Source: Clostridia bacterium (GTDB lineage: Bacteria; Bacillota; Clostridia; Christensenellales; CAG-1252). Taken from it: 62,164 nt of DNA. Positions 6,399 to 61,037 of the stretch are shown piece after piece. The DNA lies in the NCBI GenBank assembly GCA_017961365.1, contig JAGCXI010000068.1, positions 1-62,164 on the forward strand, written 5' to 3'. Within the stretch, counting starts at the first letter, position 1. Every line of letters begins with the position of its first letter. The notes below the pieces were generated by a model. The model was not told the DNA's origin and searched no databases. It saw only the letters and a list, made by a program, of their open reading frames with translations. Both the position numbers and the translations under genes were made by a program.

Positions 6399-6429
6399 AG
6401 AAATAACTCCTTAAAATTTTTGCAAAGGG

Positions 6430-43355: not shown

Positions 43356-43405
43356 GCCAAATAGAATGCAATCGTAAGTTCGGAAAAAGGAGGTGAAGAT
43401 CGGAA

Positions 43406-43747: not shown

Positions 43748-43976
43748 TTTGCTTGAAGGAGCAACTAACGTTTATCGGACGCGGGATTACATTGTGAAGC
43801 AAGAGATCGAAGTATTGGTCAATCGCCATGATAACAATGCCGTAGTCAGTCATGATACGTTCATTCGTCGAACGAAGCTTCGGGATAGATTCTATGAGAT
43901 CCTGTTCTGCGCTCGTAAGAATATCGACGGAAAACGCTTGCCCAGCACTATGTACGATCGAAAGTACGTAGTCTAA
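43728..43976 (+). CDS. Hypothetical protein
   Basis: ATG at 43728 after GGAGGTG. Overlaps the end of the HTH gene. 82 aa. Confidence 0.45.
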   Translation: MEKSINDLLEGATNVYRTRDYIVKQEIEVLVNRHDNNAVVSHDTFIRRTKLRDRFYEILFCARKNIDGKRLPSTMYDRKYVV

Positions 43977-44214
43977 TCAATTTGGGTTTATCGAACGCAG
44001 AGATATAACCGATCGTTCGAGCGGTACTTGCAAGATAAGAGTGGCCACTCACCGTAAGAAATCGCCCGAAACGAGATGTTTCAACAAATTGCGTTCGTTA
44101 CCGATACAACTGAATAGCGGCAAACAGATCTGAGCGAGGAGCTGGATCAAAAAAAGCCGCACCGCTGTGCTATCGGCGTCACGGGCAACGATACCACAAA
44201 GAGGAGGAAACAAT

Positions 44215-44499
44215 ATGTCGAACAAATCGTCCGGAGCGGGCTCTGCCGGTAAGTACAACAACCGCAGATGGTCCGTTCCTTCCAAGCGTGCAAAAGCATA
44301 CGCGGAAGACAGAAAGGCGAAAGTCCATACCTATGGTAAGAAGGAAGGTCAGCAGCTCACCGACTACGAAGCCGGTATGCGTTCCGGTTACCTGCAATGC
44401 CAAGGGGATCACGCCGGTCTGTACAAGTACAAGAAAGCCCTTGCGGAGGGCAAATCTAAGAGCGAGGCAAAGAAGATCTCGCAACAGAAAAAGAAATAA
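44215..44499 (+). CDS. Lys-rich small basic protein (candidate nucleic-acid-binding protein)
   Basis: ATG at 44215 after AGAGGAGGAAACAAT. 94 aa with a KKISQQKKK tail. Confidence 0.55.
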   Translation: MSNKSSGAGSAGKYNNRRWSVPSKRAKAYAEDRKAKVHTYGKKEGQQLTDYEAGMRSGYLQCQGDHAGLYKYKKALAEGKSKSEAKKISQQKKK

Positions 44500-44517
44500 A
44501 AGGAGGAAAAACAGAGA

Positions 44518-44859
44518 ATGAGCAACAAGATTTTTGTGGAAAGAGACACCTACGAGAGTAAGGGTAAGACCTATTACTCTTATTTCATCAAGGGACAAAT
44601 CAGAGGTAAGGACGTTCGCGTCGCCATCGTTCCCCCGGATCTCGGCGGATATGCCGTTTTGGAGATCGTCTTCGGAGAAGCTATGGCTGCGGAACTCATC
44701 GCCAAACCGTTTGAGATCAAGGACGACAAGACGGGTTCCGTCATCAGCGGAAACACCTATATGGTCCGCACCGAAGACGAAAACGGCATGGTGTACGAGT
44801 GCAATGTCAAGCCTTTCCGTTCGTCCGATAAATCGCTTCTCAATATGCTTTTGAGATAA
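44518..44859 (+). CDS. Hypothetical 113-aa protein (candidate ssDNA-binding/OB-like; speculative)
   Basis: AAAGGAGGAAAAAC RBS. Beta-strand-rich sequence. Its position resembles gene V in filamentous phages. Confidence 0.5.
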   Translation: MSNKIFVERDTYESKGKTYYSYFIKGQIRGKDVRVAIVPPDLGGYAVLEIVFGEAMAAELIAKPFEIKDDKTGSVISGNTYMVRTEDENGMVYECNVKPFRSSDKSLLNMLLR

Positions 44860-44870
44860 GGAGGTAAAAC

Positions 44871-45977
44871 ATGGAATTCAGTAAAGAAAAAATCAGATGG
44901 ATCATTATCATCTCGGCAATTCTCGTCATCCTCGGTCTCACGATCGCGGCGGTCGTCGTTTCGCAGAAGCAAGCCGCGCAAGTAAATGAAACCGTGTCGG
45001 AATTGCTCCTTGAGGATAACTCGGAAACCCTTTCGGCAGAACCTATCGCCATCACGACCATTTCCGGAAGCGGCATTATGGTGCTTGAAAAACCGATGTA
45101 CCTTGGTGCCGGTGACGGCGGTAGCGGCGATTCTGCGTTCGCAAAGACCCTCACCGCAACCGTCCTTCCCGTGGACGCACCGGATAAGAGCGTGGATTGG
45201 TCTGTCGCTTGGGCATCGGACGCAAGTCGTAGTTCCCAACAGGTTAATCAGTATATTACTGTTACCCCGAATGCAGACGGCTCTAACGTCGCAGTCGTTC
45301 GTTGCTTGAAGAGTTTCGAGGGAGACCACATCCTTGTCACGGTCACGACCCGCGTAGGTGGCTTCTCTGCAACCTGTCAGGTGGAGTATGTCGGTGTGCC
45401 GCAGACCATGACGATTAACACGACCGGTAAGACGGTAAAAACCGATACTGCTTGGAACAAGTCCATGGTGGAATTACAGTGCGGTTCGGAATACTATTTC
45501 GACCTCGATCTGGATAACGAACTTCATGCGGTCGGATCTTCGTATGGCAACTATACTTTCTCGGTCGCCGCTTATGGTTCGGTTGACGTCAACGTTCATG
45601 CTCACAACAATTCGACCGGAGAGGATACTTATTCCGTTGAAACGGAAGAGCATAAGGTCGGAGATGTTCTTGAATCAAGTGGCTATATTTATACCTTCTT
45701 CTCTGAGCCCAGTAGTCTTCTCCCGGTGGTTCATGTTGAATTGCGTGATGGCAAACTGTATGTGAAAGCCGAAAGAGCAATTTCTTCGCTCAGTGGGATA
45801 AACGGTAACCGTGGTGGCTATGCCGAGAGATCATTCAAGCAGTACACCGACGGTAAGTGCCCGTATGCCACCATCACCGTGACTGAGACCACGACCGGCC
45901 TTTCCAAGTCTATTAACGTGAAGACCATCGCGACCGTCACGAACGTGAATATGTCTGCCGCAACGATGTCCTTCTGA
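44871..45977 (+). CDS. N-terminally anchored membrane protein with a Big_2-like Ig segment
   Basis: TAAGGAGGTAAAAC RBS. TM segment IRWIIIISAILVILGLTIAAVVV. ...LTATVLPVDAPDKSVDWSVAWASD...ITVTPNADGSNVAVVRCLKSFEGDHILVTVTT..GGFSATCQVEY resembles bacterial Ig-like group 2. Confidence 0.65.
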   Translation: MEFSKEKIRWIIIISAILVILGLTIAAVVVSQKQAAQVNETVSELLLEDNSETLSAEPIAITTISGSGIMVLEKPMYLGAGDGGSGDSAFAKTLTATVLPVDAPDKSVDWSVAWASDASRSSQQVNQYITVTPNADGSNVAVVRCLKSFEGDHILVTVTTRVGGFSATCQVEYVGVPQTMTINTTGKTVKTDTAWNKSMVELQCGSEYYFDLDLDNELHAVGSSYGNYTFSVAAYGSVDVNVHAHNNSTGEDTYSVETEEHKVGDVLESSGYIYTFFSEPSSLLPVVHVELRDGKLYVKAERAISSLSGINGNRGGYAERSFKQYTDGKCPYATITVTETTTGLSKSINVKTIATVTNVNMSAATMSF

Positions 45978-45991
45978 GAAGGAGGTGTCGT

Positions 45992-46585
45992 ATGAGTGGA
46001 AAGAGCGCAAAACTTAAAATAAGCAAGGTCATAACTTACATCTTGATCTTCCTCGTTTTGGTGGGCTGTTTAGGTTTCGTCGCCTATTTCACGAATGGGT
46101 TTACCGGTGATTTCAAAGAGTTCTATGTCAATGTTGACGGCAAGAACGTACTGGCAGAAGCGGAGGGGTATATGCTCGCAGCAGACGCCCCTCTATCCGC
46201 AAACGTCAAATACACGTTCGGCGCCATAAGCAAAGACATTTCGGGCTACCATCTCGCAGTCCTTCCCGCGACGGATTTCACCTTTACCGTAGATGGTGAA
46301 GAACACAAGTTCGCCGACGAGAAGGACCTCTCCGCGGGTTTTGAGATCATCGAAGGCGAGGAGGAGTTCACGCTGACGCCGAAGGGCTCGCTGATGGATA
46401 TCTTACAGGCAGTCTATTCGGATACGGAGATCGTTATGGATAAGAGCCAAATCTCCCTAGACAAAGACCTTTTTAAGGTCGTCGTCTATTCCGAGGACAA
46501 GTCCGCGAAGGTCGTCATCGGTTGCCGCCTCAAGGATCCCTTTATGGAGGGTGTGAGGTTGGATAAGGAGGTGATCACGTTTTGA
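45992..46585 (+). CDS. N-terminally anchored membrane protein
   Basis: GAAGGAGGTG RBS. TM segment VITYILIFLVLVGCLGFVAYF. 197 aa. Confidence 0.6.
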   Translation: MSGKSAKLKISKVITYILIFLVLVGCLGFVAYFTNGFTGDFKEFYVNVDGKNVLAEAEGYMLAADAPLSANVKYTFGAISKDISGYHLAVLPATDFTFTVDGEEHKFADEKDLSAGFEIIEGEEEFTLTPKGSLMDILQAVYSDTEIVMDKSQISLDKDLFKVVVYSEDKSAKVVIGCRLKDPFMEGVRLDKEVITF

Positions 46586-48003
46586 CCAGAGAGATTAGAA
46601 CGAGAGTAATCATTGGTTTTCTCGCTCTGATCTTGGGGGTAGGTGTCGTCCTATTGATGGCACTTTCCCCCACTATGGCAAGCGCGGAAACCAAAACCTA
46701 TTCGGGCGTATTGTCCGATCTCAAGCGCGACGCTACCTTCAAAGAAAGTAACTATCCGGAGAACCCAACGGACTATTCCCTCTCTATCATCCAAATAGCG
46801 GAGAGCGAGGACAGCGAACTATTCTTGTATGTCTACCAACCGAGCCGAAAGACCAAGGAACTGGCGGCGTGCTCGATCAATATCTCCACGACCATCAACG
46901 ATGCCATATCGTTCACGAACTATAAGCTGGAACTGCTAAATAGCAGCGGCGTGTTCTGCAAGTATAAGGTCAAGGATTTCACGGTACGGACGGATCCCGT
47001 CAGGTACTATGTCATCACTTCAATCTATCGTCCCTTCGACGAGTCCATAGACCTAGGAACGGGAAACAGCAATACCATTACCGAAGTCAACTACGCCGTG
47101 AACAAGCAATACTGTTTCGGATCGATCAACGGCAACCCGTACTGTTCCGTCGTGGATATAGAGACCATCGTCGTCACGGATAAGTTTGTCGGCTTCGTTC
47201 GTTACCCGGACGGATTCAAGCTGTATATCGGCGCTTGTGACGCTCACTTCGTCGCGTTCAACACGGACCGACCTATGGACAAGCTCTTAGAAGCTGACGT
47301 GTATTACACGCAACAGAAATACGAGATGTCCTCCGCAATGATCGTCGGAAAGCAAGAAACCTTCGGGACCAAAGAGGACAAGTATGCCTATTTGAAGTAC
47401 ACGGATAAGGTGGAACACAATGGCGGAGGTTGGTTCGCCGGGACGTACCGATGGGATCGTATTCAAACGGTTTCGGATTTCATATCCAAAGAAAACCGTG
47501 AGAATATTTACCATGGCGCCATCCTCGATGTGGAGACCTCTTCCAAGCTGACGGATGCGGCTCTTAGGGAGCTTCAAGGGAAACAATGGGTGTTGCGTTT
47601 CGCCGAAACGAGCTATGAGTTCAATTCGGTAAACGGTGTCACTTGGCAATTTTCATCCATCGTAGGTGACGTAACCATTCTGCGCTTGAAGTTCGAAACA
47701 GACGGTATCACCTATAACCTCGGTGTGATCGATAACAAGCAAACGGGAAGCACGGAGCCTGTGAATGAAGTAGAGTATGAGGTCAGCGTTTCAAGTCGAG
47801 CAAAGAAACTGCTCATGCTGTTGCTGTTGATCTTACTGCTCATCATCCTTGCACCAATCCTGCCCTATATCCTGAAAGTCGTGTTTTGGATCATCACACT
47901 ACCGTTCAAGATCCTCGGCGGCATTCTGAAGGCGTGGAAGAAAGCCAGAGAGAAACGGGCGGAGAGAAGGAATAAACCGCCACAACGAGATCCCACGGGA
48001 TAA
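46582..48003 (+). CDS. Protein with a signal-like N-terminus and a C-terminal TM anchor plus basic tail (adsorption/spike-like topology)
   Basis: TTG start after AAGGAGGTG, overlapping the upstream stop. N-terminus ...VIIGFLALILGVGVVLLMALSPTMASAE. C-terminus KKLLMLLLLILLLIILAPILPYILKVVFWIITLPFKILGG...KKAREKRAERRNK. Confidence 0.6.
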   Translation: MTREIRTRVIIGFLALILGVGVVLLMALSPTMASAETKTYSGVLSDLKRDATFKESNYPENPTDYSLSIIQIAESEDSELFLYVYQPSRKTKELAACSINISTTINDAISFTNYKLELLNSSGVFCKYKVKDFTVRTDPVRYYVITSIYRPFDESIDLGTGNSNTITEVNYAVNKQYCFGSINGNPYCSVVDIETIVVTDKFVGFVRYPDGFKLYIGACDAHFVAFNTDRPMDKLLEADVYYTQQKYEMSSAMIVGKQETFGTKEDKYAYLKYTDKVEHNGGGWFAGTYRWDRIQTVSDFISKENRENIYHGAILDVETSSKLTDAALRELQGKQWVLRFAETSYEFNSVNGVTWQFSSIVGDVTILRLKFETDGITYNLGVIDNKQTGSTEPVNEVEYEVSVSSRAKKLLMLLLLILLLIILAPILPYILKVVFWIITLPFKILGGILKAWKKAREKRAERRNKPPQRDPTG

Positions 48004-48077
48004 CCGAAGGATCACAATCAAACGGGCGTCGGCGGAGAAATCTGTCGGCGCCTTACTTTTATAAAGGAGGAAAAACA

Positions 48078-48209
48078 ATGAAAACAGTAAAAAGAATCGT
48101 GGCAGTCCTTGTGGTTGTCCTGATTATCGCCGTTGTGTCCTATATGGTCTATACGGCAAAACAAATAGATATGGATCAAGTCAAGGAGGCTGCCTATGCG
48201 AGTGCGTAA
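48078..48209 (+). CDS. 43-aa single-TM protein (candidate major coat/virion membrane protein). Not in the supplied ORF track.
   Basis: TAAAGGAGGAAAAACA RBS. MKTVKRIVAVLVVVLIIAVVSYMVYTAKQIDMDQVKEAAYASA. The stop at 48207-48209 overlaps the next gene, which starts at 48196. Confidence 0.5.
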   Translation: MKTVKRIVAVLVVVLIIAVVSYMVYTAKQIDMDQVKEAAYASA

Positions 48210-50310
48210 AGCATTGAATATCATCCTAACGGTCGCCTTATCCGGTTTGTTCCTATTGTTCGGGTACCGACATTTCACCGGATCGTATATCCGCCTCGGA
48301 GAGAGTTTTAAGGACTTGTTCGGGAGTTTGAAATACTACTTCTATATGCTCTTTGATAAGCCCGTGGGAGAAACGCCGCACGTCGCCGAGTATTCCGAGT
48401 TCGTGAAGTGGGAGATCCTACTTCCCAAAGACTTTGAAACCTTCAAATCGGGAGCTGCGGCGTACTTCAAGGCGCTGTTCAACGGCAAGAACTTCGTAGG
48501 CTGGCTGACCTCGGCACTGACCGATGTGGGAGGCTTCGCTAAGGTAATGATGTTGATCCTGCCGTGCATTGTCGTGGGAATCATCGTCATTAAGCGTATC
48601 TATGGACAGGAGAATACCGATCACGGCAAGGACACGGTGCCGTTGCGCGTCTATAAGTTCATATCGAAGAAAACCTATCAACCGACCAAGGGCTTTGTGC
48701 AGCAATACATAGAGTTCATAAAGGCCAATTCGTGGATTTTGATTTCTTGGGCGGTCTTGTGGGGCTTGCACTTCAATCTCGGCGCGATCGTCGTTGAGTT
48801 CTTCGCGTATTACTTCTTCTTTTCGGTATCATTCGGTTGGGAGACTTTGTACGTGCAGTTCGTCAAGCTCGTACTGGATCTTCAAACGATTATACGCTTC
48901 TTCCCGTGGTGGGTGCTAGCGTTCTTCGCCTATGCGATCTTCCATCATATTCGCAAGAAGATTGCACTTGCTCTGCTCCGAAACTACGAAGCGAGGAATT
49001 GCGGATTCATCAACAGCCTGCCGATCGTGTCTATCACTTGCGGGAGCATGGGCAAAAAGAAAACCACAATGATCACCGACATGACTCTCTCCCAAGAGGT
49101 TATGTTTCGGCAGAAAACCTTTGAGATCATCCAAAAGGGAGATATGCAATTTCCACACTTCCCGTGGATCCACTTTGAGGACGAACTGCTCCGCTGTATG
49201 GAACACGGCACCGTCTATAATCTCGCAACCGTTAAGGCTTGGGTGGCAAAGAAACAGGAGCGGTACGAAAAGCATCACAACAGCGACTTGCAACTCTACG
49301 GATACGATACCAAACGCTACGGTCTCGTGTATAACGATGCCCTGAAACCTCGCCATCTCTTCGAGGTCTTAGAAACCTATGGGCAGGCGTACTTTATCTA
49401 TGCCATGCAGACGAGCCTCATCGTAGCGAATTACTCCGTGCGAACGGACAACGAAATGGTGTCGGTCGGCAACTTCCCGATGTGGTTGACGGACTTTTTC
49501 GCCGAGGAGCGACGGAACAGTAGGCATTCTCATATCTTGGACTTTGATGTACTACGCCTCGGTAAGAAAGTGATGGAGAGCAATCCCAACGCAGGCAGTT
49601 TCGAGTTCGGTGTGGTAGCTATAACGGAGATCGGGAAAGAGCGCGGCAACAACCTTGAGTTGAAAGAGATCAAGAAGAAAAACGACGAGACCAACCAAAA
49701 GAACGACCTCTTCAATTCGTGGCTGAAAATGTGCCGTCATTCGGCGACCGTGGATAATTTCCCGTTTATCAAGGTGTTTACCGACGAACAACGGCCCGAA
49801 AGTTGGGGAGCGGACGCACGGGATCTTTGCGACATCGTGAATATCGCTCAAGCGGGAGAAACTAAACTTGCGCTGCCGTTCTACACCATAGAGGAAATGC
49901 TGTCCGAGTGGGCGTATAGCTGGTTCATTTCGCTGTATTACGACTTCCGCTATCGTCGAGGGGACAATACTCTCCTTGTGCACATCTTGAAGTCCGTGAC
50001 ATCGTGGCTTTGGAAACGAAATCATCGGATCTATAACCGTTTCGGGTACTCCGAATTGAAGGTTGAAAAGGAACGCGGGACGATGGACGGTCGCGCGGAA
50101 AGCAAGAAGTATTACCTCATGCACAACAAGATTTACAGCGGCAGGTTCACGACGGACTGCTTTTCGGATTATTTCAACGACTTAGCGAAGAAGACGCCGG
50201 TGGGACTCTTGGATTATCCGGAGTACGAGACCGAGAAAGCAAGCATCGACGAGCTGAAAATGCAGAACAGCTATTTCATCAATTCGCTGTATAAGGACGA
50301 GGAGGAATAA
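48196..50310 (+). CDS. 704-aa protein: N-terminal polytopic membrane domain plus a cytoplasmic domain with a deviant P-loop (candidate assembly/extrusion ATPase)
   Basis: AAGGAGG RBS. About 4-5 hydrophobic helices in residues 7-250. ITCGSMGKKKTT (residues 281-292) is Walker-A-like. FGVVAITEIG is a possible Walker B. Confidence 0.6.
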   Translation: MRVRKALNIILTVALSGLFLLFGYRHFTGSYIRLGESFKDLFGSLKYYFYMLFDKPVGETPHVAEYSEFVKWEILLPKDFETFKSGAAAYFKALFNGKNFVGWLTSALTDVGGFAKVMMLILPCIVVGIIVIKRIYGQENTDHGKDTVPLRVYKFISKKTYQPTKGFVQQYIEFIKANSWILISWAVLWGLHFNLGAIVVEFFAYYFFFSVSFGWETLYVQFVKLVLDLQTIIRFFPWWVLAFFAYAIFHHIRKKIALALLRNYEARNCGFINSLPIVSITCGSMGKKKTTMITDMTLSQEVMFRQKTFEIIQKGDMQFPHFPWIHFEDELLRCMEHGTVYNLATVKAWVAKKQERYEKHHNSDLQLYGYDTKRYGLVYNDALKPRHLFEVLETYGQAYFIYAMQTSLIVANYSVRTDNEMVSVGNFPMWLTDFFAEERRNSRHSHILDFDVLRLGKKVMESNPNAGSFEFGVVAITEIGKERGNNLELKEIKKKNDETNQKNDLFNSWLKMCRHSATVDNFPFIKVFTDEQRPESWGADARDLCDIVNIAQAGETKLALPFYTIEEMLSEWAYSWFISLYYDFRYRRGDNTLLVHILKSVTSWLWKRNHRIYNRFGYSELKVEKERGTMDGRAESKKYYLMHNKIYSGRFTTDCFSDYFNDLAKKTPVGLLDYPEYETEKASIDELKMQNSYFINSLYKDEEE

Positions 50311-50313
50311 GGT

Positions 50314-51213
50314 ATGCCATTTGAAGAAACGAAAGTATATTACGACGGTAGCCATTACGTGGCGATTCCCCACACCGAACGAGGTTCCCGAAAGCGTAAA
50401 AAGCTAAAGGAAGAGCCGATCGTGGTGGAGAATAGAACAACTACGCGGAAGGAGCTGTTCAATGATTTGTACGCCTCGTCGGAAAGCAAGACCAAACGAA
50501 GCAAGAAGAAGGAAATTACCGATCAGATGAAAGACTTTTTCCCCAATAAAAAGGACGCGGATATGTTCGTGGAAGAGAACTTCCAAAGGAAACGTCGCAA
50601 TCTTATTTGTCGAAGAACAAGGCTCTTTCGGAAGGCAGCGATGCAGGAGTTCAATTACTTTTGTACCTTCACCTATGATCCTCAAAAGATGGACGAAGAT
50701 ACTTTTCGAACAAAGCTACAATATGTGTTTAGACACAATAGCACGCGCAAAGGCTGGAAGTATATAGGGGTATGGGAGCGATCCCCGGAGAAGCACAGAC
50801 TTCACTTTCACGGGATCTTTTATATCCCCGACGGTACAATGCTCGGTGAATTTGAAGAAAAGAGCGATTACAGCATCGGAGACGCCAAACGGAGAAAGAC
50901 GAAGCAGAACACTTACTTCGCGGAACGCTTCGGGCGAAACGTCTTTGATCGCTTGGAACACACCACTGATGCAAATCGATCTTTGACGTACATTATAAAG
51001 TACCTCGAAAAAACGGAAGAACGGATCGTGTATTCCAAGGGAATGAAGCAATATTTCATATCGGATGTGATGGAGGAAGACGTCGCTTGTCCGTGCGGCA
51101 TCGGCGACGCAAAGCTTCTTTTATTCGATGACTTCATCTGCTACGATCAAGGGGAAATCAAGGGACAAGTATCGCCGAAAGTCATAGCGGAAATGCGGAA
51201 AACAGATTCGTGA
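50314..51213 (+). CDS. HUH-superfamily rolling-circle replication initiator (two-tyrosine, superfamily I type)
   Basis: AGGAGGAATAAGGT RBS. Motif 1 FCTFTY (116-121), motif 2 LHFHGIFY (H164-F-H166), motif 3 YIIKYLEK (Y226, Y230). Confidence 0.75.
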   Translation: MPFEETKVYYDGSHYVAIPHTERGSRKRKKLKEEPIVVENRTTTRKELFNDLYASSESKTKRSKKKEITDQMKDFFPNKKDADMFVEENFQRKRRNLICRRTRLFRKAAMQEFNYFCTFTYDPQKMDEDTFRTKLQYVFRHNSTRKGWKYIGVWERSPEKHRLHFHGIFYIPDGTMLGEFEEKSDYSIGDAKRRKTKQNTYFAERFGRNVFDRLEHTTDANRSLTYIIKYLEKTEERIVYSKGMKQYFISDVMEEDVACPCGIGDAKLLLFDDFICYDQGEIKGQVSPKVIAEMRKTDS

Positions 51214-51349
51214 TAAAGAACCGAAAAAGCAAACTGCATTTCGCCGCCGAGAGGAAACGAGGGCGCGACGCAAGCGGATTAGCGCGACCGCCCCGTCCTC
51301 CGCGGCGCAGTTGCTTCGGTTTTGATCGAATCGCCGCGCGCTATGCGGG

Positions 51350-51469
51350 CGTGTGCTTGTTGGCGGATCGAAGCGCGGCGACAGCCGCGCGAAGAGACGC
51401 CACTTGATATATACAAGCACACGTCCGAGTGCCAATTGTATTATCAAGCTTGTTTTATACAAGCACACG
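51350..51469. repeat. ori-like repeat cluster downstream of rep: ACAAGCACAC(G) in three copies (inverted at 51350-51360; direct ATACAAGCACACG at 51411-51423 and 51457-51469) plus the GC hairpin GCGCGGC-GACA-GCCGCGC (51373-51390)
   Basis: Read from the sequence. Confidence 0.6.
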
Positions 51470-51691
51470 CATTACTGCCAATCGAGGTTTTTTAGGTATT
51501 TTCGGTCAAAAACACAGTTGCTCTTTCGCTCGATTTTTCAGTAAAAATAGCTGTGGCTATTTGGAGCAGAGAGAGCGGCTTGATAAATATTTGCTAAGGT
51601 CTATTATTATGCTTTTTTGCGGTTTGTTCGACACCAGACACATACTTTGCATTGAACGACACTAACTTGTATTTTAAATAACTCTTGGTTC

Positions 51692-52939
51692 TTAATTTAT
51701 CGTTTGATTACTATATAGCAGTTTAATACTCTCTTTTAGTGAAGGCTCCCGATGAATTCCAAGAGCCAATAAGAATTCGACATATAGCTTTTTTTTCATG
51801 AATTCATATTCGTCATCACTTATAATATCGTTATAAACCACCGGATTTGTTATAATGAGATTTCGATCCAATCTAACATCATAATTGTTATCGTTCACAA
51901 ACACATTTTGGCAGTTTATAAGAGACAAGCAAACAAAGATTTTTCTATTGCTAAAAATGTTTTTAAAAACACTGGTATAGCTTTCTAACAAGCCTCCCAA
52001 TTGATTCCATAATGGGCACCATTCAAAATAATCTTTGCCGGAACTAGCATGACGTAATAAATCTCCTTGATTTAAGGGGCAAAGACATTCTACAATTCCG
52101 TTATATGTTATTAAACCTTCATAATTTCTGTAATCGCTTTCAGGTGAGGCGATGAATCTTAGCCCGTCCACACTGGGCAAAGATGTATGTCCACAATTAA
52201 AATGATTAAAGATATCACTAAATTTAATATGCTTAATAATACTTAACGCAAAAGGATTAATATTATAACTTGAATCAATAAACGTTTCAGGAATTAAATG
52301 AATAAGTAAAAATTTTTTACCATTATCCCAATTTATATTTGTTTTATCTTCGCAAAATTTTATCCGATCTAACCGAAAATTATAGATTTCTTTTTCCAAG
52401 ATAATTGATTGATTAAATCTATTTTTAAGTTCATTATAAGTCATAGAAAATTTCCTGTTCCCGTTTCTTGTGTATGCATAATATCTACATTGGTTTTCTA
52501 AAAATAAATATGGTGCAAAGTTATCGCTCTGAATGAACAAAACAACAACATATTTACCATTTTCAAGTTTGATAAAATGAAAAATAATAAAAGGAGTTTT
52601 GGGAAATATAGACAAAAGGTTGTTACGTCTTTCTTGTTCAAATGAATCCGTATTGTTGTTAGGAATATTAATCCCAACTATGTTCGTAGCTATACCATTT
52701 TTTTCAGAAATTCCAAAAATTAAATATCCACCTTCGGAATTAGCAAAAGAACAAACGTCGTTTTTAAATTCAACTATTTTTTCATTTCGTTTATTATCGT
52801 TTTTATCAAATTCTAGAAAAGCAAAATTTTCCTTGTAGTCTATATATTCGTTCTCTCTATAATCTTGGTTATCTAAGAGAAGTTTTAATTCATCCTCATT
52901 TATTTCTGTAAATGATTTCCCATTAATTGTTGGTAGCAT
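51692..52939 (-). CDS. AlbA_2 (Schlafen-like, divergent AAA_4) DNA-binding-domain protein with an unknown ~300-aa C-terminal domain
   Basis: ATG at 52939. ...ENEYIDYKENF........IVEFKNDVCSFANSEGGYLIFGISEKNG matches the AlbA_2 core (E..fK...........i....aFANt.GG.l.iGv). Confidence 0.65.
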   Translation of the reverse strand: MLPTINGKSFTEINEDELKLLLDNQDYRENEYIDYKENFAFLEFDKNDNKRNEKIVEFKNDVCSFANSEGGYLIFGISEKNGIATNIVGINIPNNNTDSFEQERRNNLLSIFPKTPFIIFHFIKLENGKYVVVLFIQSDNFAPYLFLENQCRYYAYTRNGNRKFSMTYNELKNRFNQSIILEKEIYNFRLDRIKFCEDKTNINWDNGKKFLLIHLIPETFIDSSYNINPFALSIIKHIKFSDIFNHFNCGHTSLPSVDGLRFIASPESDYRNYEGLITYNGIVECLCPLNQGDLLRHASSGKDYFEWCPLWNQLGGLLESYTSVFKNIFSNRKIFVCLSLINCQNVFVNDNNYDVRLDRNLIITNPVVYNDIISDDEYEFMKKKLYVEFLLALGIHREPSLKESIKLLYSNQTIN

Positions 52940-52943
52940 AGTT

Positions 52944-53309
52944 TTACTCCATAGTTTTGATTTTCGACTCGATATAAGATTGTTCTTCCACAGTAAGATA
53001 GTCACTCAAATCGACGCCCAATTTAACAAGCCCTTTACAGCCAAGCGCACATAAAAAATGACGTGCCGATAAGTATTTATCCTTCATTGTCTTTGGTTTG
53101 TGGGTGTTTATTCTATTCCATATTTTCATTTCTTCCTGATGCTTATTCGCTATCTCGACAATATGCTTGTTCATTTCGTGGAACCTTTGATCTAGGTATA
53201 AAAAATCCAGTTTATTCAGATCACGTTGAATATCATTTATATCATGACGGTCCTTAAACACATCAAAAAGTTTACGAAAATTATCCATTTCGTTAGGTTT
53301 CAGTTCCAT
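52944..53309 (-). CDS. Hypothetical 121-aa helical protein
   Basis: AAAGGAG RBS. The stop lies 4 nt before the AlbA_2 gene ATG. Confidence 0.55.
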   Translation of the reverse strand: MELKPNEMDNFRKLFDVFKDRHDINDIQRDLNKLDFLYLDQRFHEMNKHIVEIANKHQEEMKIWNRINTHKPKTMKDKYLSARHFLCALGCKGLVKLGVDLSDYLTVEEQSYIESKIKTME

Positions 53310-53386
53310 CTCGGGACTCCTTTTTCCGCATTAGGGCGTATTTCATGTGTTTTCACTTTAACATTTGTTGAAAACCTAGATGCCAT
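53300..53386 (-). CDS. Candidate 28-aa leader ORF (MASRFSTNVKVKTHEIRPNAEKGVPRWN)
   Basis: AAAGGAGAATTTATT-ATG. Its stop overlaps the ATG of the 121-aa gene (AGATGGAACTGA). Too short for the ORF track. Confidence 0.25.
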   Translation of the reverse strand: MASRFSTNVKVKTHEIRPNAEKGVPRWN

Positions 53387-53421
53387 AATAAATTCTCCTT
53401 TCTAAATATTATTTGTTTATA

Positions 53422-54168
53422 TCATATTAAATCAGATCTCAAAATACTATCATATGAAATCGATATTTTATCTATCTCATATAAACGTGAATTTATTGCC
53501 TTACAGTCTTCCGAGTAAAAGAAGACTAACACATCTCCATCAGGATGCAAAGAACTTTGAAATACAACACCATCGAACCCCATATTTATAAACTGTCCTG
53601 CCAAGTACTGAGTAAACCAATAGTTATGCCCCGAATAATGTGGCCGTGAAAATTCTTCAGCTATTCTTGAAATAAGATAGCTTAATACTTCATTATCAAT
53701 TAATTTTGCTGATACATTTTTTCGTAAATCGGCAAAATTTAAATCCCGTGTTGTTATAAATTCTGCTATGGAAATTCTTTCATGTTTTATGGGGCGTAGT
53801 TCATATATAACTGTTGTTGGATTGTTACAAGTATAAAGAAATGACTGTCCTTTACAATTAAGCCTCCCTTCTGCTGCAAGTTCGTGAGGTGGCGCGCCAG
53901 ACTTATCTGCATCATATCCTTGAAAAACCTCCTCATCTGAATCAATAAATTTATCAAAGTCCTCGCTATTAGAAACTACTTCATCCAAATTAAAAATACG
54001 TCCTCTAAAAAAGGATAAGCCCTCTTTTATTCGACAAGAAAATAGTCCTCTATTTTTTTCTAATATAGATAAAAAAGGGTTTCTCGTATCAAATCTATTA
54101 AATTTTACAATCGTTTCTTTCCAATGATAAAAATCAAAACGAACTTTATTTCTTAACTGTTTATCCAT
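53422..54168 (-). CDS. RES-domain protein with an N-terminal extension
   Basis: ATG at 54168 after TAAGGTG. GRLNCKGQSFLYTCNNPTTVIYELRP (R...E) and FDGVVFQSSLHPDGDVLVFF (S) match the RES (Arg-Glu-Ser) domain pattern. Confidence 0.65.
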   Translation of the reverse strand: MDKQLRNKVRFDFYHWKETIVKFNRFDTRNPFLSILEKNRGLFSCRIKEGLSFFRGRIFNLDEVVSNSEDFDKFIDSDEEVFQGYDADKSGAPPHELAAEGRLNCKGQSFLYTCNNPTTVIYELRPIKHERISIAEFITTRDLNFADLRKNVSAKLIDNEVLSYLISRIAEEFSRPHYSGHNYWFTQYLAGQFINMGFDGVVFQSSLHPDGDVLVFFYSEDCKAINSRLYEIDKISISYDSILRSDLI

Positions 54169-54209
54169 TGTGCACCTTATTGTTTTTCTGATACTTTGCA
54201 AAAGCAATT

Positions 54210-57200
54210 TTACTCCATAGGCTTAATCATCGACTCAATGAAAGCGATTTCGGATTCGTCGAGATTGTATTTAGCATATAAATCGGCATCCGCCCAAGCT
54301 CGTGAAAAGTCTTGTACGGAGACGAAACGATATGTTTTTGCCGTGCCGTGCTGACTGATTTTAGCGAGACTCAACAAGTATCTTGCGAACTTGGTTTTCA
54401 AATAATTGCAAAGATTGGTTGCTTTGTTTTCATCAAGATTCAAATCGGCACCAACCACAAGAAACGTTTCCGTACAAACAGTGTTCGGCGAGCCGACAAA
54501 TGCATTTTGATTATCATCATTTAACTCGGTACCGATATTATTAGATTCGGGAATGTACACCTTCCATAGTTTCACCCATTCTTTATGGGTGGAAATTTCA
54601 GAATAGTCTACATAGCCTTCTTTCCCGGAACGCCCATAGCATTTTACTGGATTCTTTAATCCAATGGGTTCCGCTCTAAATTTCGAATCATTTATAAAGA
54701 ATGTTCTAAAGCCAAACGCTTTAGCTGCCGATATGTGTCTCTCAAAGGTGTCCAAAGTTTGTTCCTGCGGCAAAACCTTGTCAAGTATGGAGATTGCTCG
54801 ACTATCGCGAATAAAAATATCAAGATCCCTTGTTTTCAAGGAACGTTGTGAAATATGCGTTTTCCCTTCGCCTTCGTGTGTAACAATCGTCACGCCGACT
54901 TGAGAATTATCAAAGGACTTATTTCTTGCAAAATAGCAAATACCGCCTCTATTGTTTGTATCGGGGAAAACTTCTTCGGGATGCAGAAAATCGTGTAGCT
55001 CCTTTATGTGTTTATCTCTCAACATTTCATCTCTAAATTCATCAAGCCCCTTGCCGCCGGCATACCAACGAGTAGGCATAATAATAGAGAGATATTCGGG
55101 TTGAAGTTTCTTTCCTACTTTAACAAAAGCGTTATAGATAGGTTTTGCGCTTTTCTGCGCGCCGCCGTCGTCTTCTTGATAAGGCGGATTTCCTACTACT
55201 GCATCGAATTGAATCATATCTGCTTCTCCTTGTGTCGGATCGTCTGTCAGTTTTATCTCATCAAAGGGTTTGCTCTGCGCTATTATCTTGGCTATCTTTT
55301 CGTAGTCGATTTCGTCATCCGTTTTCACGTCAAGCAAATCTGTTGCAATGAATCGCTTTGCGATATTGGCACCGTTCAAACCGAGCATTTCATACAGCTT
55401 TCGCGTCAGTTCATAACAAATGGATGACTTCGGAATGGTGTAAATCATATCGGCAACAACCTGTCTGTCAATGCCAAGTGATAGCAATCTCTTTTGCAAT
55501 GCTAATGCGTATTCGCCCGACGTACCGGCAATATCCAATATCCTGCCGCGCCTTTCGGCAACTTCTTTCAGGAAGTCATCGGAGAAGAGATTGACCATAT
55601 CGTCGCAAATATTCGACGGCGTAATAACGATGGCGTCGCCAAGCTTGCCGAACTTCTTGACGGCGACCGCCGCTCTGTCCTCGGGCGACATATCCGACGC
55701 TTGCGACAAATCGTTTAGGTCTTGGATTTTGTAATCCAAATCGCTCAACACAAACTTGTTGGATTTTTGGTAAAGTAGGACAAGTATCTCCTTTTTCAGT
55801 CCAAGGTTATAGGCAATGCGCTTGTTGTCTTCCGTCTCCATCTTCTCGATAATGTCGGAAACGGAAATAACTCTGTCTTTTGTGATGTATGCAAAGAGCA
55901 AGATTCGGACATAAAAACCCTGTATCTTTTTCTTGTTGCTGATCTCTTGCTTCCGCGTATCGTCAGGTGAAGAAGGCGCATTATCGTGCGGAGCCGTATC
56001 CTCCGTTTCCTCCGCATCGGGATCGGGCGTGCCGCCGTCCGGCGTATTTAAGTCATTGCCTTCGTTCCCGTCCGTGCCATCATGTGCGGGCGTGGATAAA
56101 CCGGCTTTTGATCCAATCTCGTTTTCCTGTTCGATTGCCGCACGAATGGTCGCGTCCTCCAAAATACTCAAATCGACGGGCGTTTCAAGCGCTTCGTCCT
56201 TAATGCCTTTGTCTTTTTTATAGTTGCTTACCACTTGAAGGATATCCGCCGCCTTTACTTCAACGATCTTATCTGTATTGATGGTAACGATGGGAGAAAT
56301 GCGCAACTCTTCGATTATGCGCTTTTCCAGCTCACGATTGCCGCCGGTGTCGACGTTTGCGTTGTAGATTTTAGACTTTGTTTCTTGCATGACAAACATT
56401 CTGTTCGGCATAAAGTCCACAAGCAACGTCTGCGGCTTCATATTGTACTTGATTGTATCACCGTTGTCGTCAACGTAAGTTTTTATATATTGATTTTGCA
56501 AACGGAAAATTGCTTGGTCGTATTCCTGCGGAGAAGCGGTATCTTTTAGATACAACATCGTATCCCACTCCGGTACAGTGCTACCCGTAAGCATACGATT
56601 TACGGTCAACGTGATCGTCTTTTGCCCGTTCTTTTCCGCTACACGAACGGCGGCTTTTATCGCGTTCGGAGTCTTGTAAGCATTTGGATTATCCACGCCG
56701 GAAATGTTGATGATTTTGTATCCATTCAGATTGCGGAACCTATCCGTATTGGCCGCGATCAAGGTTTCAAGAGCGTCGCAAGAAGCGCAATAAGGCAAAA
56801 CAATAACGATATGGCGACACATCTTGCCGTCTTTGATCTTATCGTAATTGAGGAAACCCAACAATTGGTCGTCTGCTTTGCTTCCGTCTATGACTTCCAA
56901 CAAATCAAGTATCTCTCGCTCGTATTTGAATTTCTTATGCAAACCGCTTTCGTTCTTTTTGATTGACATCGGCTTGAAGAGCGCAGAAAACGCATAAGTC
57001 ATTCCCGACTTTTTCAATTCTTCCAAACGCTTGCGGGAAGATTCGTTCGGATTGAAGGCAAATCGTACCATCTGCGGGAATCCGAAATAAGGATTATCCC
57101 ATTCTTTGTAGTCATCGTCCAAGACGTGTTCTTTATCCCACGCTTCCTGATCGTGGACGATGTCGATGAATTGATAGAAGGCGATGATGTCTTCTTTTTT

Positions 57201-58253
57201 GAACTCGCTTCCCATCAAGATACGATACGGTGTACCCGACAGGTGAATGGTGATGTTGGTATGAAGCGTTTTTATCGTTTCGTCCGCTTCTTCCACATCA
57301 ATGAAATCATCTGCGTCTTTCTTGTTTTTGACATCTTTTTCGTATTTCTCGCCTTTAAGCACTGCACCGTACTTATCGGCACGCGCGCCGAAATGTGTTT
57401 CGTCCACAAGCAAAAGATCGATGTCTTGCCCAAATACTTCTTGGTGCTTATCCTTAATGGTATCGCCTTGCAGATCTTGCAAGGTTAAAAAGACGGCAAC
57501 CTTCTTTCCGTTCGATAGCGTTTCCGTGATAATTTTGTTGTTGCGGTTGAGTTCGTCGCTTGTTAAAAAGACATAATCCGCAAATTTGACATGGCTTTCG
57601 ACCGTCTTCTTCCATTCCATCTTTACGTCCGCTTTTGCCGAAACGATAACGACCAATTTGGCGTCCATCTCCGCGGCGCAACACATCGATGTAAACGATT
57701 TCCCGAAACGCATAACGGCATACATCAAAAGATTCTTGCGACCGCTATCTATTGCTTGTCTGAACGCTTTGATCGTTTTCTCTTGATTGGGGCGAGGAGA
57801 AAAGGTTTCGGTGCGTGCAAATGTGAAGGTTTCGGCAAGGCGATTTTCGGCATTGTAGAATTGATACTTCTCGGCATTATCCGAGAAATCTTTTTCAATA
57901 TCCGCGATTGCCGCTTGTATGTCTTCGGAATTGGCATCCTTAAAAAACTCTCGGGAGTAATAAACGCCCGCAGGGATGTCCGTTGGCGTTAATCTTGCTC
58001 TTTGCTTGTCTGTCTCCAAAAATTGATGGACAGCATAATCACGGAAATAAACATCGTCGTTGATTCTCGCCGTACCTTCGTATTGTTTTTCAAGCTCGGG
58101 AAAATGCACGCGCCATTCGTCCAACCGCGTTGAAACGGGTCGATATGTATCGCCGACTTTCAAATAATTGGGAATCGTGTTGGTCGTAAAGGCATAAATG
58201 CGAGGCTCGACTCTTCCGATAATGATATTGTCCAAACAGCTTTTATCTATCAT
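54210..58253 (-). CDS. 1347-aa fusion: GIY-YIG/T5orf172-like N-domain, SF2 (DEAH-type) helicase, acidic linker, gamma-class N6-adenine DNA methyltransferase (Eco57I-type) and TaqI_C-like specificity region
   Basis: IYAFTTNTIPNYLKVGDTYRPVSTRLDEW; AVMRFGKSFTS (motif I); LLLVDETH (motif II); QAIFRLQN (motif VI-like); ITPSNICDDMV, ILDIAGTSGEYA, VVGNPPYQ (residues 1020-1026). Confidence 0.8.
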   Translation of the reverse strand: MIDKSCLDNIIIGRVEPRIYAFTTNTIPNYLKVGDTYRPVSTRLDEWRVHFPELEKQYEGTARINDDVYFRDYAVHQFLETDKQRARLTPTDIPAGVYYSREFFKDANSEDIQAAIADIEKDFSDNAEKYQFYNAENRLAETFTFARTETFSPRPNQEKTIKAFRQAIDSGRKNLLMYAVMRFGKSFTSMCCAAEMDAKLVVIVSAKADVKMEWKKTVESHVKFADYVFLTSDELNRNNKIITETLSNGKKVAVFLTLQDLQGDTIKDKHQEVFGQDIDLLLVDETHFGARADKYGAVLKGEKYEKDVKNKKDADDFIDVEEADETIKTLHTNITIHLSGTPYRILMGSEFKKEDIIAFYQFIDIVHDQEAWDKEHVLDDDYKEWDNPYFGFPQMVRFAFNPNESSRKRLEELKKSGMTYAFSALFKPMSIKKNESGLHKKFKYEREILDLLEVIDGSKADDQLLGFLNYDKIKDGKMCRHIVIVLPYCASCDALETLIAANTDRFRNLNGYKIINISGVDNPNAYKTPNAIKAAVRVAEKNGQKTITLTVNRMLTGSTVPEWDTMLYLKDTASPQEYDQAIFRLQNQYIKTYVDDNGDTIKYNMKPQTLLVDFMPNRMFVMQETKSKIYNANVDTGGNRELEKRIIEELRISPIVTINTDKIVEVKAADILQVVSNYKKDKGIKDEALETPVDLSILEDATIRAAIEQENEIGSKAGLSTPAHDGTDGNEGNDLNTPDGGTPDPDAEETEDTAPHDNAPSSPDDTRKQEISNKKKIQGFYVRILLFAYITKDRVISVSDIIEKMETEDNKRIAYNLGLKKEILVLLYQKSNKFVLSDLDYKIQDLNDLSQASDMSPEDRAAVAVKKFGKLGDAIVITPSNICDDMVNLFSDDFLKEVAERRGRILDIAGTSGEYALALQKRLLSLGIDRQVVADMIYTIPKSSICYELTRKLYEMLGLNGANIAKRFIATDLLDVKTDDEIDYEKIAKIIAQSKPFDEIKLTDDPTQGEADMIQFDAVVGNPPYQEDDGGAQKSAKPIYNAFVKVGKKLQPEYLSIIMPTRWYAGGKGLDEFRDEMLRDKHIKELHDFLHPEEVFPDTNNRGGICYFARNKSFDNSQVGVTIVTHEGEGKTHISQRSLKTRDLDIFIRDSRAISILDKVLPQEQTLDTFERHISAAKAFGFRTFFINDSKFRAEPIGLKNPVKCYGRSGKEGYVDYSEISTHKEWVKLWKVYIPESNNIGTELNDDNQNAFVGSPNTVCTETFLVVGADLNLDENKATNLCNYLKTKFARYLLSLAKISQHGTAKTYRFVSVQDFSRAWADADLYAKYNLDESEIAFIESMIKPME

Positions 58254-58262: not shown

Positions 58263-59234
58263 TCATTTCCTCAGTAAGTTGACGAATTTGATCTTCTTTC
58301 CCGTTTCCCAGTCCTTTACGTAGCAATATATCCCGTTGTGCTTTTTGTGATTGTTTTTCTTGCAGCCATCACACATTTCTTCGTGGACTTCTTCTCCAAA
58401 AAAAGTGTAGTCCACGACTTTTTCATTATGGCAGCTATTCGGAATGACAAACTTTAATCCATCCATTTGCCAAATATTCCAAGAGAGGATCTCGGCGACC
58501 TCGCGCAAGTATTCTTTGATAGGATAGACGCCGAATTTGTTTTCATAATGATCGGTGAAGGTGAACAGTAAGTTTTCACGGGCAAGCAGCACGTTATCTC
58601 CTTGCCAATCATAGCCGTATATACTCTTAAAAGCTTCTTTTGCCCATTCGTACCATTCTTGCTCGCCGTCGATGTTTTCCGAAACGACGCGCAGTTTGCG
58701 ATCCAAAAGTCCGATACGGTCTTTAACCTCGATAACTTCACCTGTCACGGTATCATAACGGCTTGCAAGGTAAGGGGCCTCGCCGCAAGTTATTTCAAGA
58801 CGTTGTGCTTTGACATAGTCTTGCCAAGTTTTCCCCTCCGGGAACACTATCTTTTCGGAATTGGTCGTCCACCCTTTTTCTGTTTCGGTGTTGAAGACGC
58901 CCTCGCATCCAAACCAAGCGTTATCTACGAGATTGTTTTGTTGATTGCATATCCAAGACGGGGTGAAAACTTCCGCTTTATCGCGGACACGGGAAAGCTG
59001 CTCCTTCTTGCTCTTTTCGGTTCTTGGGCGGATCAAATTACCGCTTTTTCCGGTGATGGAATAAATCGTAATATAGTCGCTTGCGCTGTATCCGTTGCCG
59101 TTTGAAATATAGTCATCCGTTGCCCATATCAGATTCTTCCCGGACGAATTGTCTTTCAGCAGGATTGACAAAAGTTGAGCGTCACGCTCCAATATTCTAT
59201 TTTCTTTGACGTCAACCCGTATTTCTTTTGCCAT
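58263..59234 (-). CDS. Methyltransferase-fold-like protein lacking the (N/D)PP(Y/F) catalytic motif, with a C-terminal Cys/His cluster
   Basis: AEVFTPSWICNQQNNLVD (motif X-like) and LEITCGEAPYL (motif I-like). No PP dipeptide anywhere. C-terminal CHNEK...CDGCKKNNHKKHNGIYC. 9-nt gap to the fusion gene. Confidence 0.6.
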   Translation of the reverse strand: MAKEIRVDVKENRILERDAQLLSILLKDNSSGKNLIWATDDYISNGNGYSASDYITIYSITGKSGNLIRPRTEKSKKEQLSRVRDKAEVFTPSWICNQQNNLVDNAWFGCEGVFNTETEKGWTTNSEKIVFPEGKTWQDYVKAQRLEITCGEAPYLASRYDTVTGEVIEVKDRIGLLDRKLRVVSENIDGEQEWYEWAKEAFKSIYGYDWQGDNVLLARENLLFTFTDHYENKFGVYPIKEYLREVAEILSWNIWQMDGLKFVIPNSCHNEKVVDYTFFGEEVHEEMCDGCKKNNHKKHNGIYCYVKDWETGKKIKFVNLLRK

Positions 59235-60128: not shown

Positions 60129-61037
60129 CTACAGAAGAAGTTTATTTCGATAGTTGTATTTCGATAGTACTTTTTTCTTTCTGTTGATTGTGACTTCGGT
60201 ATATATCTCGGTGGTGGAGACGCTTGCGTGTCCCATAATTTCTTGCACGGAACGAAGATCGGCTCCGTTTGCAAGCAAGTTTGTCGCAAAGGTATGGCGA
60301 AGGAAGTGCGGCGTTGCTTTTGTGTTAATTCCCGTTAGATCCCGATATTTGCTAAAGATGTTTTCTGCACCGTACACGCTGAGCGGAGAGTGTTCCCGAT
60401 TGACGAAGAGAAAGCCGCAGTTAATACCGCGCTCTTTGCGCAGTCGTAGCCAATCTTTTAGGTTGTTCCATGTATCTTGGCAGGATATGTAGAGAAGACG
60501 TTGTTTGCGTCCTTTTCCATGGATTAGAATCGTGTGTTCCGAGTGTACGACGTCATCGAGAGTCAGTGCCACAGCCTCTCCCACACGTATGCCGGTGCTG
60601 AGCATAAGGTCGATTAAGCAGAGGTCGCGGGTGGTTTGAAAAACTGCGAACGGGGTGACAGCTTCGGTCTTGCGGGTTTTCAGACAGTTGATCAAAGCGC
60701 GCACCTCTTTTACTTCAAGGGTTTTGGGTAGGCGCCGTTCTTTTCTGAAGGGGAAAGATATCTCTCGCATCGGGTTCTCCGTCAAGTGCTTTGTCTTGCA
60801 AAGGTAATCCAAAAATTGCTTGATCGAGATCAATTTTCGCTTGATAGAGGTGTCTTTGAGTCCTTGCGCCTTCAGCCCGTCTATATAATTGAAAATCTCA
60901 GATAAGGTCACCGCGCCCACATCCTCGTTCTCCGCAAGAAATCCCTTCAAATCCGATCGATACGCCTTAATTGTCTTTTCCGACAGATTCTTCGTCGTGC
61001 GTATTTTTTGTATAAATTCATCCAAACACATTCCCAT
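60129..61037 (-). CDS. Tyrosine recombinase (XerC/XerD-like phage integrase family)
   Basis: N-terminal SAM-like domain (...KTIKAYRSDLKGF...), catalytic ...TGIRVGEA...LIHGKGRKQR...HFLRHTFATNLL..GADLRSVQEIMGHASVSTTEIYT. The ATG at 61031 has better RBS spacing than the one at 61037. Confidence 0.85.
   Translation of the reverse strand: MGMCLDEFIQKIRTTKNLSEKTIKAYRSDLKGFLAENEDVGAVTLSEIFNYIDGLKAQGLKDTSIKRKLISIKQFLDYLCKTKHLTENPMREISFPFRKERRLPKTLEVKEVRALINCLKTRKTEAVTPFAVFQTTRDLCLIDLMLSTGIRVGEAVALTLDDVVHSEHTILIHGKGRKQRLLYISCQDTWNNLKDWLRLRKERGINCGFLFVNREHSPLSVYGAENIFSKYRDLTGINTKATPHFLRHTFATNLLANGADLRSVQEIMGHASVSTTEIYTEVTINRKKKVLSKYNYRNKLLL

Follow-up and report, generated by a model that had tools for sequence, protein, structure and literature searches.

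What a RES-domain gene, a 28-codon open reading frame (ORF), a gene for a protein of 121 amino acids (aa) and a Schlafen-like gene are doing side by side behind a restriction-modification (RM) operon is the question raised by positions 51692 to 54168 of a 62,164-nucleotide (nt) stretch of DNA (the window: positions 1 to 62,164 of contig JAGCXI010000068.1, from a Clostridia bacterium). A sequence-only reading had left two answers open: an effector/sensor set working with the neighbouring RM-like genes, or independent abortive-infection-type modules. Comparison with related loci, labelled L001–L113, finds no co-occurrence in favour of the first; the second fits the data best. The block is probably a mosaic string of independent, presumably co-transcribed defence genes behind a methyltransferase and Type IIG operon, not one system.

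The evidence for this answer is the company that each family keeps elsewhere. The suggestion that RES, the 121-aa protein (p121) and the AlbA_2 (Schlafen-like) protein might travel together did not survive comparison: an AlbA_2 gene accompanies RES in none of 13 genome loci, and none of 33 AlbA_2-family genome loci contains p121. A p121 relative occurs with RES in one of the 13 (L010), where it lies upstream of RES. Gene orders differ even in the closest relatives, L014 reading Type IIG–p121–106 aa–RES–675 aa and L022 reading RES–helicase–DUF2971.

The anatomy of the block itself was described correctly from the start. All four ORFs lie on the minus strand: the 248-aa RES-domain protein (53422..54168), the 28-codon ORF (53300..53386), p121 (52944..53309) and a 415-aa prokaryotic Schlafen (pSlfn; 51692..52939). 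From the end of the Type IIG gene (54210) to the ATG of RES (54168) there are 41 nt, with AAGGTG as the RES ribosome-binding site; the RES stop at 53422 is followed by a 112-nt gap to the p121 ORF. The 28-codon ORF, with the site AAAGGAGA ahead of it, overlaps the p121 start by 10 nt, and 4 nt separate the p121 stop from the pSlfn start. The peptides singled out earlier (GRLNCKGQSFLYTCNNPTTVIYELRP, VVFQSS and FANSEGGYLIFGI) are all present in the translations. The block had also been called the most AT-rich coding stretch of the window, which it is not: guanine–cytosine (GC) content is 0.28–0.34 across it and 0.284 at 52–53 kb, and the pentapeptide gene at 61–62 kb, at 0.280, is equally AT-rich. 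The island as a whole reads tyrosine recombinase–methyltransferase–Type IIG–RES–scar–p121–pSlfn.

The RES domain is genuine. The Pfam RES profile matches the 248-aa protein with E=1.2e-9, and Arg102 (in GRLN), Glu123 (in YELRP), Ser205 and Ser206, together with Arg55 and Arg57, are invariant in 70 homologous sequences; the window copy keeps all 25 invariant positions of the family, here called RES-248. Of the 74 homologues that a database search brought up, nearly all are 243–262 aa long and align over their full length, so the N-terminal part is a conserved family feature. The AlphaFold model is a single compact fold (predicted local distance difference test score, pLDDT, 91.8; predicted template modelling score, pTM, 0.88), for which Foldseek finds NatT as the best match in the PDB, then MbcT, P. 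putida Xre-RES and ParT, at probability ~1.0. At the level of sequence, a RES profile run against PDB sequences found no relative and matched no solved RES toxin, and PADLOC, NCBIfam and PHROGs returned nothing for the protein.

An N-terminal extension of ~125 aa had been proposed for this protein; extra helical elements are indeed there, and the size was overestimated. The model suggests that a beta-hairpin at residues 44–58 already belongs to the RES core, and that the real additions would be some 43 helical residues at the N-terminus and, ahead of the catalytic Arg102, a helical insert of ~30 residues. Because the model is one fold and NatT, the best structural match, is itself 250 aa long, the additions come out far below 125 aa. 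NatT has its catalytic Arg at residue 82, a helix–loop–helix "Flap" before R82, and no toxicity on its own (PMC11535050). With its invariant positions kept and its fold confidently modelled, the window RES looks intact and functional, and its gene is intact although both recurrent neighbours are absent or displaced. By homology, it is a predicted NAD+ phosphorylase/NADase effector.

The absence of an Xre-type antitoxin, noted earlier for the 41 nt between the RM gene and RES, extends well beyond the window. No helix-turn-helix (HTH)/DUF2384 partner stands beside RES in the window or in ~24 RES loci, nor does any conserved small neighbour. These loci are L001–L013, L014, L022, L087, L088 and L090–L096; 13 come from the genome set, 3 from close relatives, 6 from further contigs and 2, the only usable ones, from a metagenome scan. 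All hosts are gut Clostridia metagenome-assembled genomes (MAGs). Because an Rfam search of 51.0–54.4 kb found no RNA family, an RNA antitoxin of a known family is unsupported as well. Pattern scans of IMG/VR found no relatives of RES-248 or p121, so there is no sign that either is a phage gene.

What usually stands next to RES is a defence gene, although not the same one. RES usually lies on the same strand as, and mostly 12–80 nt downstream of, varied defence genes: Type IIG, a Type III Res subunit, DndB/DpdB-like, Hypoth_Ymh HEPN, PDC-S37/Hhe, PDC-S02 (Mrr), a specificity subunit, IetS, hsdR, a DISARM-like helicase with Eco57I, DUF6414 and, once, a PARG macrodomain. On the strength of these neighbourhoods, RES-248 is best described as an antitoxin-less defence-island family; a literature search did not find antitoxin-less RES in defence islands described. 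Some of the neighbours are of interest in their own right. A microbial PARG macrodomain gene lies immediately 5' of RES in L006 (5077–5952), and an ADP-ribosylglycohydrolase gene lies 2 kb 3' of RES in L090 (7774–8589). By analogy, such ADP-ribose-processing enzymes could be occasional RES antidotes or partners. L090 also carries a TIR-domain gene within a Type I RM operon (855–4836), between hsdS and hsdR and with RES after hsdR, which is another suicide-type effector embedded in an RM operon.

The 28-codon ORF, well initiated and overlapping the next gene as had been observed, is not the leader for which it was taken. By tblastn it is 70% identical over 23 codons to the start of a gene in L014 (8661–10688) that follows RES there and encodes a 675-aa protein. 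At the DNA level, homology with L014 extends from the RES stop across the ribosome-binding site and into these codons, and breaks off at ~53318, shortly ahead of p121. The ORF is therefore a recombination scar, the 5' stub of a truncated gene of which the ribosome-binding site and ~23 codons are left. A regulatory leader and a small antitoxin were both considered for it and rejected, given its match to the beginning of the 675-aa gene. In the 675-aa protein a GHKL ATPase signature is weak (HATPase_c_3, under the Pfam cut-off), and there is no PADLOC match. The gene follows RES in L014 and again in L088 (5765–7789); the two 675-aa proteins are 72% identical to each other, and the RES proteins of these loci are 83% (L014) and 48% (L088) identical to that of the window. 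As an obligate partner of RES it was rejected as a general rule, being confined to two loci and the window remnant.

The AlbA_2 (Schlafen-like) N-terminus proposed for the 415-aa protein is borne out by both sequence and structure. SLFN_AlbA_2 is its sole Pfam match (E=8.6e-16, profile positions 1–117 of 118), and Foldseek aligns the N-terminal 140–200 residues of the model with the SLFN13 N-domain, SLFN11, SLFN12, SLFN14 and the SAMD9 tRNase. The segment RENEYIDYK supplies E29-x4-D34-x-K36, with E29 and K36 invariant and D34 present in at least 90% of 71 homologues; the catalytic motif of Schlafen nucleases is Ex4(E/D)xK (PMC13056530). The family (pSlfn-415) has more than 300 full-length homologues of 400–420 aa, conserved end to end, and the AlphaFold model shows two domains (pLDDT 90.1). 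The C-terminal domain of ~240 aa, though confidently folded, could be assigned neither to a Pfam family nor, with confidence, to a PDB fold. For the protein as a whole, PADLOC and NCBIfam had no match, and the one PHROGs match is weak and pairs the AlbA_2 region with a "DNA helicase" family. Prokaryotic Schlafens whose fused sensor domains are varied and often unannotated defend E. coli by tRNA cleavage (PMC13056530). By its sequence and predicted structure, the 415-aa protein is a member of this nuclease class with an uncharacterised putative sensor domain. The earlier remark that no described system matches the block is out of date for the AlbA_2 protein, whose class was shown in 2026 to be one of phage-defence genes (PMC13056530).

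Between these two predicted effectors sits p121, a rare unannotated family. It matches nothing in Pfam (E<=0.01), NCBIfam, PHROG or PADLOC; its profile returns only chance xylanase matches among PDB sequences; neither Pfam nor the PDB sequences show similarity to DUF4065/Panacea or other antitoxin domains; and hhalign finds no relation to RES. An exhaustive HMMER search over 1.8 billion representatives (E<0.001) yielded 57 clusters of 68–141 aa, the exceptions being one of 163 aa and a repetitive one of 1531 aa that we take as spurious. Among 23 loci with enough context, p121 mostly overlaps an RM gene or follows it by at most 22 nt, in operons of a methyltransferase (~329 aa) with Type IIG or of a Type III-like N6_N4-methyltransferase with ResIII. 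The genes that come after it fall into 18 clusters, at a gap of 1–5 nt in 14 of the 23 loci and of at most 18 nt in 20 of them. These followers include AbiTii, DolA (DUF6414) with an AAA protein, a PD-T4-6-type kinase, PDC-S60/DUF4062, an Old/AriA/GajA-like ATPase–TOPRIM, PDC-S19/DUF3644, DUF5677, another Type IIG, membrane proteins, RES (L010) and pSlfn (the window), and seven of ten sampled cargo genes have PADLOC matches (AbiTii, DolA, PD-T4-6, PDC-S60, Old/AriA/GajA-like, PDC-S19 and DUF3644). Several of these followers are known, self-sufficient systems. Because the RES-248 and pSlfn-415 families almost never adjoin p121, p121 is not an obligatory partner of either. In six loci (L028, L033, L034, L037, L038 and L041) a conserved 253-aa predicted membrane protein with no Pfam match is encoded between Type IIG and p121, at about 6220–6981 in each locus and with a 4-nt overlap with the Type IIG end; in L040 the Type IIG gene is apparently truncated and fused to the end of the 253-aa gene.

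The operon ahead of the block is of a recognisable kind. Its first gene (58263..59234, minus strand) encodes a 323-aa DNA methyltransferase that matches PADLOC MTase_II (PDLC03390, E=1.9e-123); L014 has a 61%-identical homologue ahead of its Type IIG gene, and ~329-aa ORFs hold this position in many p121 loci. The second (54210..58253, minus strand) encodes a 1347-aa helicase–methyltransferase that matches PADLOC REase_MTase_IIG over its full length (residues 6–1346, E=0) and carries the Pfam domains ResIII and Eco57I, as expected of a single-polypeptide Type IIG / ISP-like enzyme. Ahead of the helicase region, residues 19–129 give only a weak PADLOC match (PDC-S57, E=3e-4). The N-terminal ~130 residues carry the motifs IYAFTT...LKVGDT, which we take to recall GIY-YIG/T5orf172-type nuclease domains.

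By BLASTP, p121 shows no similarity to the last 229 aa of the Type IIG enzyme; the element common to the two is a short tail. The enzyme ends in YNLDESEIAFIESMIKPME and p121 in LTVEEQSYIESKIKTME (YIESKIKTME), with the consensus FIESxIKPME directly before the stop codon. The RM tail (last ~25 codons plus stop, 54208..54284) and the p121 tail (52942..52978), both on the minus strand, form direct repeat D1, at 37 nt and 78% identity the longest in the region. Between the window and L014, the last 75 nt of the Type IIG genes are 84% identical, against ~52% for the remaining DNA and 24% for the protein. Within the p121 tail (ATGGAGTAA), GGAG stands 6 nt before the next start codon, a Shine–Dalgarno distance.

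The same tail recurs well beyond this operon, in places as a remnant of 8–25 codons ahead of a cargo gene. Upstream of close p121 relatives stands either a whole Type IIG gene or no more than the final 8 or 19 of its codons, which are not in frame with the gene before them; the relatives' sequences diverge directly past the stop codon. An exact scan for the tail DNA found 26 genome loci in which it ends a large RM ORF, ends p121 or survives as a 12–35-codon remnant, and in which the cargo usually starts 2–9 nt past it. A DUF3644 cargo is common to L098, behind an RM tail, and L043, behind a p121 tail; DNA identity between the two loci is ~52% upstream and 79–90% from a point within the final ~40 nt of the tail onwards. 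The RM gene of L113 and the p121 of L100 lie in unrelated flanks, yet at least the final 40 nt of their tails are 100% identical. Homology between otherwise unrelated loci starts or stops at a fixed site, the tail of ~40–75 nt that closes the RM gene and p121. This pattern suggests a recombination anchor and expression platform; the alternative is that the sharing is a by-product of operon compaction. A literature search did not find p121 or the tail-anchored slot described, and the case for both is one of comparative sequence evidence.

A mechanism that joins these observations can be proposed. RES would be a self-contained, Clostridia-specific effector that, by homology with MbcT and NatT, carries out NAD+ phosphorolysis to ADP-ribose-1''-phosphate; its own N-terminal helices and helical insert, with no antitoxin, may hold it off until it fires during infection. 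The pSlfn protein, an Ex4DxK nuclease, would by analogy with its tested relatives cleave tRNA once its C-terminal domain senses a phage cue. p121 is the terminal gene of such RM operons, with cargo that is independent of it, and the scar marks an event in which RES and the start of its former downstream neighbour recombined between the RM gene and p121. Cargo may be exchanged at the conserved ~40–75-nt tail with which the RM gene and p121 both close, with the tail as homology anchor and its GGAG as the putative ribosome-binding site for promoterless cargo. A bolder version of this proposal is tentative. It holds that the portable tail is a dedicated exchange site (homology arm plus ribosome-binding site) moving promoterless RES, Schlafen, Dodola, Old and kinase cargo between gut-Clostridia RM operons, that p121 is an adaptor regenerating the site, and that RES-248 would be the first stand-alone anti-phage RES NADase.

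Several observations weigh against a string of independent genes. Promoter and terminator scans gave signals at chance level only, so that co-transcription is an assumption. PADLOC has no matching model for RES, p121 or pSlfn. Neighbours in the related loci come mostly from our own longest-ORF routine, which makes starts and gaps approximate; in L014–L021, the independent gene calls of the source pipelines match the longest-ORF calls. The L006 PARG could, by analogy, be a DarG-like antidote to RES. Since the 675-aa gene follows RES twice and has left a remnant in the window, a two-gene system of RES and ATPase may exist in some lineages. Finally, the 1–5-nt coupling of p121 to its followers is tighter than expected for unrelated neighbours, and a functional link could lie behind it.

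An improbable alternative builds on that coupling: p121 as a promiscuous antitoxin or adaptor, translated directly ahead of whichever effector follows it (pSlfn here, RES in L010), restraining that effector and possibly linking it, through the RM-like tail, to the state of the RM enzyme, in the manner of a PrrC-type guard or a PanA-type antitoxin. A different follower stands at 1–5 nt in 14 of 23 loci, many followers resemble toxins (RES, pSlfn, AbiTii, membrane proteins, DUF4062), one may be HEPN-like (a single Rx4H motif seen by eye, with no domain match), a p121 relative lies directly ahead of RES in L010, and the tail motif is kept at the protein level in p121 relatives that are just ~30% identical. 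Yet RES-248 and pSlfn-415 nearly always occur without p121, the followers include complete stand-alone systems (DolA with AAA, the PD-T4-6 kinase, an Old-like protein, a 996-aa Type IIG), the same cargo sits behind a bare RM tail in L098 and L113, and p121 resembles neither DUF4065 nor any other antitoxin domain. Somewhat less probable still is that RES, pSlfn or both act as PrrC-like guards, silent as long as the upstream RM enzyme is active and released when a phage anti-restriction protein blocks it. The position of RES directly behind RM or defence genes in most loci, the pSlfn-415 homologues found between hsdS and hsdR of Type I RM operons, the PrrC position, in three loci (L057, L066 and L068), and the suicide-type character of both effectors by homology would all suit such a role. 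The upstream partners of RES, however, belong to at least ten unrelated families while its N-terminal region is conserved, and specific binding to each is for that reason unlikely; some RES loci, such as L092, have no defence gene upstream, and most pSlfn-415 loci (n=33) lie outside RM operons. The least credible account, one to which we give very little weight, is that RES, the leader, p121, AlbA_2 and the helicase–methyltransferase form a single new multi-gene defence system. They do share one strand, short gaps, a place directly behind RM genes and a want of convincing internal promoters or terminators; against this, the combination recurs only in the near-identical copies P0001, P0075 and P0078, order and content change in L014 and L022, the leader is a scar, and each family has its own, different contexts.

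The remainder of the window places the island in its setting. On the far side of the RM operon lies a tyrosine recombinase (60129..61037, minus strand; Pfam Phage_integrase, E=4e-39, with a SAM-like N-terminal domain). Next to it, at 61126–62130, a 28%-GC stretch encodes a 334-aa pentapeptide-repeat protein; among NCBIfam models it matches that of the Hailong effector HalA best (E=4.5e-9; 36 bits, far under the 250-bit cut-off), and the gene may be another defence-type cargo gene. The left flank (40681–51213) adjoins the defence island and resembles a small integrated element of an ssDNA-phage-like or plasmid-like kind. It opens with a large serine recombinase (40681–42264, minus strand; Resolvase, Recombinase and Zn_ribbon_recom domains), continues with ~9 kb of plus-strand genes for mostly unannotated small and membrane proteins, includes a 704-aa protein with a GSMGKKKT P-loop-like motif, and closes with a rolling-circle Rep (50314–51213; Pfam REP_ORF2-G2P, E=2e-10). 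In the non-coding stretch between the Rep and Schlafen genes (51346–51482), a 34-nt direct repeat (51403–51436 / 51449–51482, 79% identical) and a 15-nt inverted repeat (51346–51360 / 51413–51427, 93% complementary) are both built on ACAAGCACACG, in local GC far above that of the island; they resemble iterons, an origin or an attachment site. Left of the element the sequence is chromosomal, with chorismate synthase at 37594–38640 and four clustered tRNA genes, three for Met and one for Glu, at 3651–4894.

To our knowledge, RES toxins are known solely as halves of Xre-RES toxin–antitoxin pairs. The window protein resembles those of MbcTA, ParST, P. putida Xre-RES and NatRT in its RES fold and invariant Arg/Glu/Ser residues. 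It differs from them in having no Xre/COG5642 antitoxin gene, in the window or the ~24 loci, and in belonging to a family confined to gut Clostridia MAGs and to the 3' end of RM or defence operons. The likeness is closest to NatT, which shares the length of ~250 aa and the extra helical elements before the catalytic Arg; according to the 2024 NatT paper, no RES toxin–antitoxin system had been implicated in immunity (PMC11535050). An antitoxin-less RES behind RM or defence genes is a clonable candidate for a new single-gene, NAD-depleting defence. A conceptual parallel is CapRel(SJ46), in which a toxin domain is restrained by an attached pseudo-antitoxin region until a phage protein triggers it; this fits an antitoxin-less RES with conserved extra helices as an idea, whereas there is no homology between the two and autoinhibition of RES would be a matter of conjecture.

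The Schlafen protein belongs beside RorSlfn5 and EcoSlfn7 (Nat Microbiol 2026, PMC13056530), with which it shares the PF04326 domain (>100 aa), the Ex4(E/D)xK motif, a single-gene layout, a fused non-nuclease domain and a defence-island location. It departs from them in a C-terminal region of ~240 aa that matches nothing and in its Clostridia host, as opposed to Enterobacterales. Unannotated domains, the category into which the window protein falls, make up 17% of pSlfn fusions (PMC13056530), and the protein adds an uncharacterised putative sensor domain to a newly established defence class. With PrrC/EcoprrI it has in common that a suicide nuclease, predicted here to target tRNA, is associated with an RM operon; the nuclease fold is another one, pSlfn has no ABC-ATPase, and the window gene stands behind a Type IIG operon and p121. 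From PanA, a hyperpromiscuous antitoxin, p121 differs in that it has no DUF4065/Panacea domain and that RES-248 and pSlfn-415 occur without it in nearly all loci.

At the level of the island, the nearest comparisons are P2/P4 hot spots and integron cassettes. The junction here is a coding tail of ~40–75 nt with homology breaks inside it, and a repeat search of 51200–54400 (one that did not use attC models) found no recurrent imperfect hairpin after the genes. The tyrosine recombinase is 6 kb away in the window, and none is apparent near p121 in most related loci. If the proposed role of the tail is right, the sequence shared by the RM gene and p121 offers a testable explanation for base-pair-precise swapping of cargo in the defence islands of gut Firmicutes, and it can be used to mine further defence genes, namely whatever comes after a tail. 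What the locus shares with P2/P4 hot spots and integron cassettes is the general plan: a fixed slot beside conserved genes, where apparently promoterless defence cargo, expressed from upstream, keeps changing.

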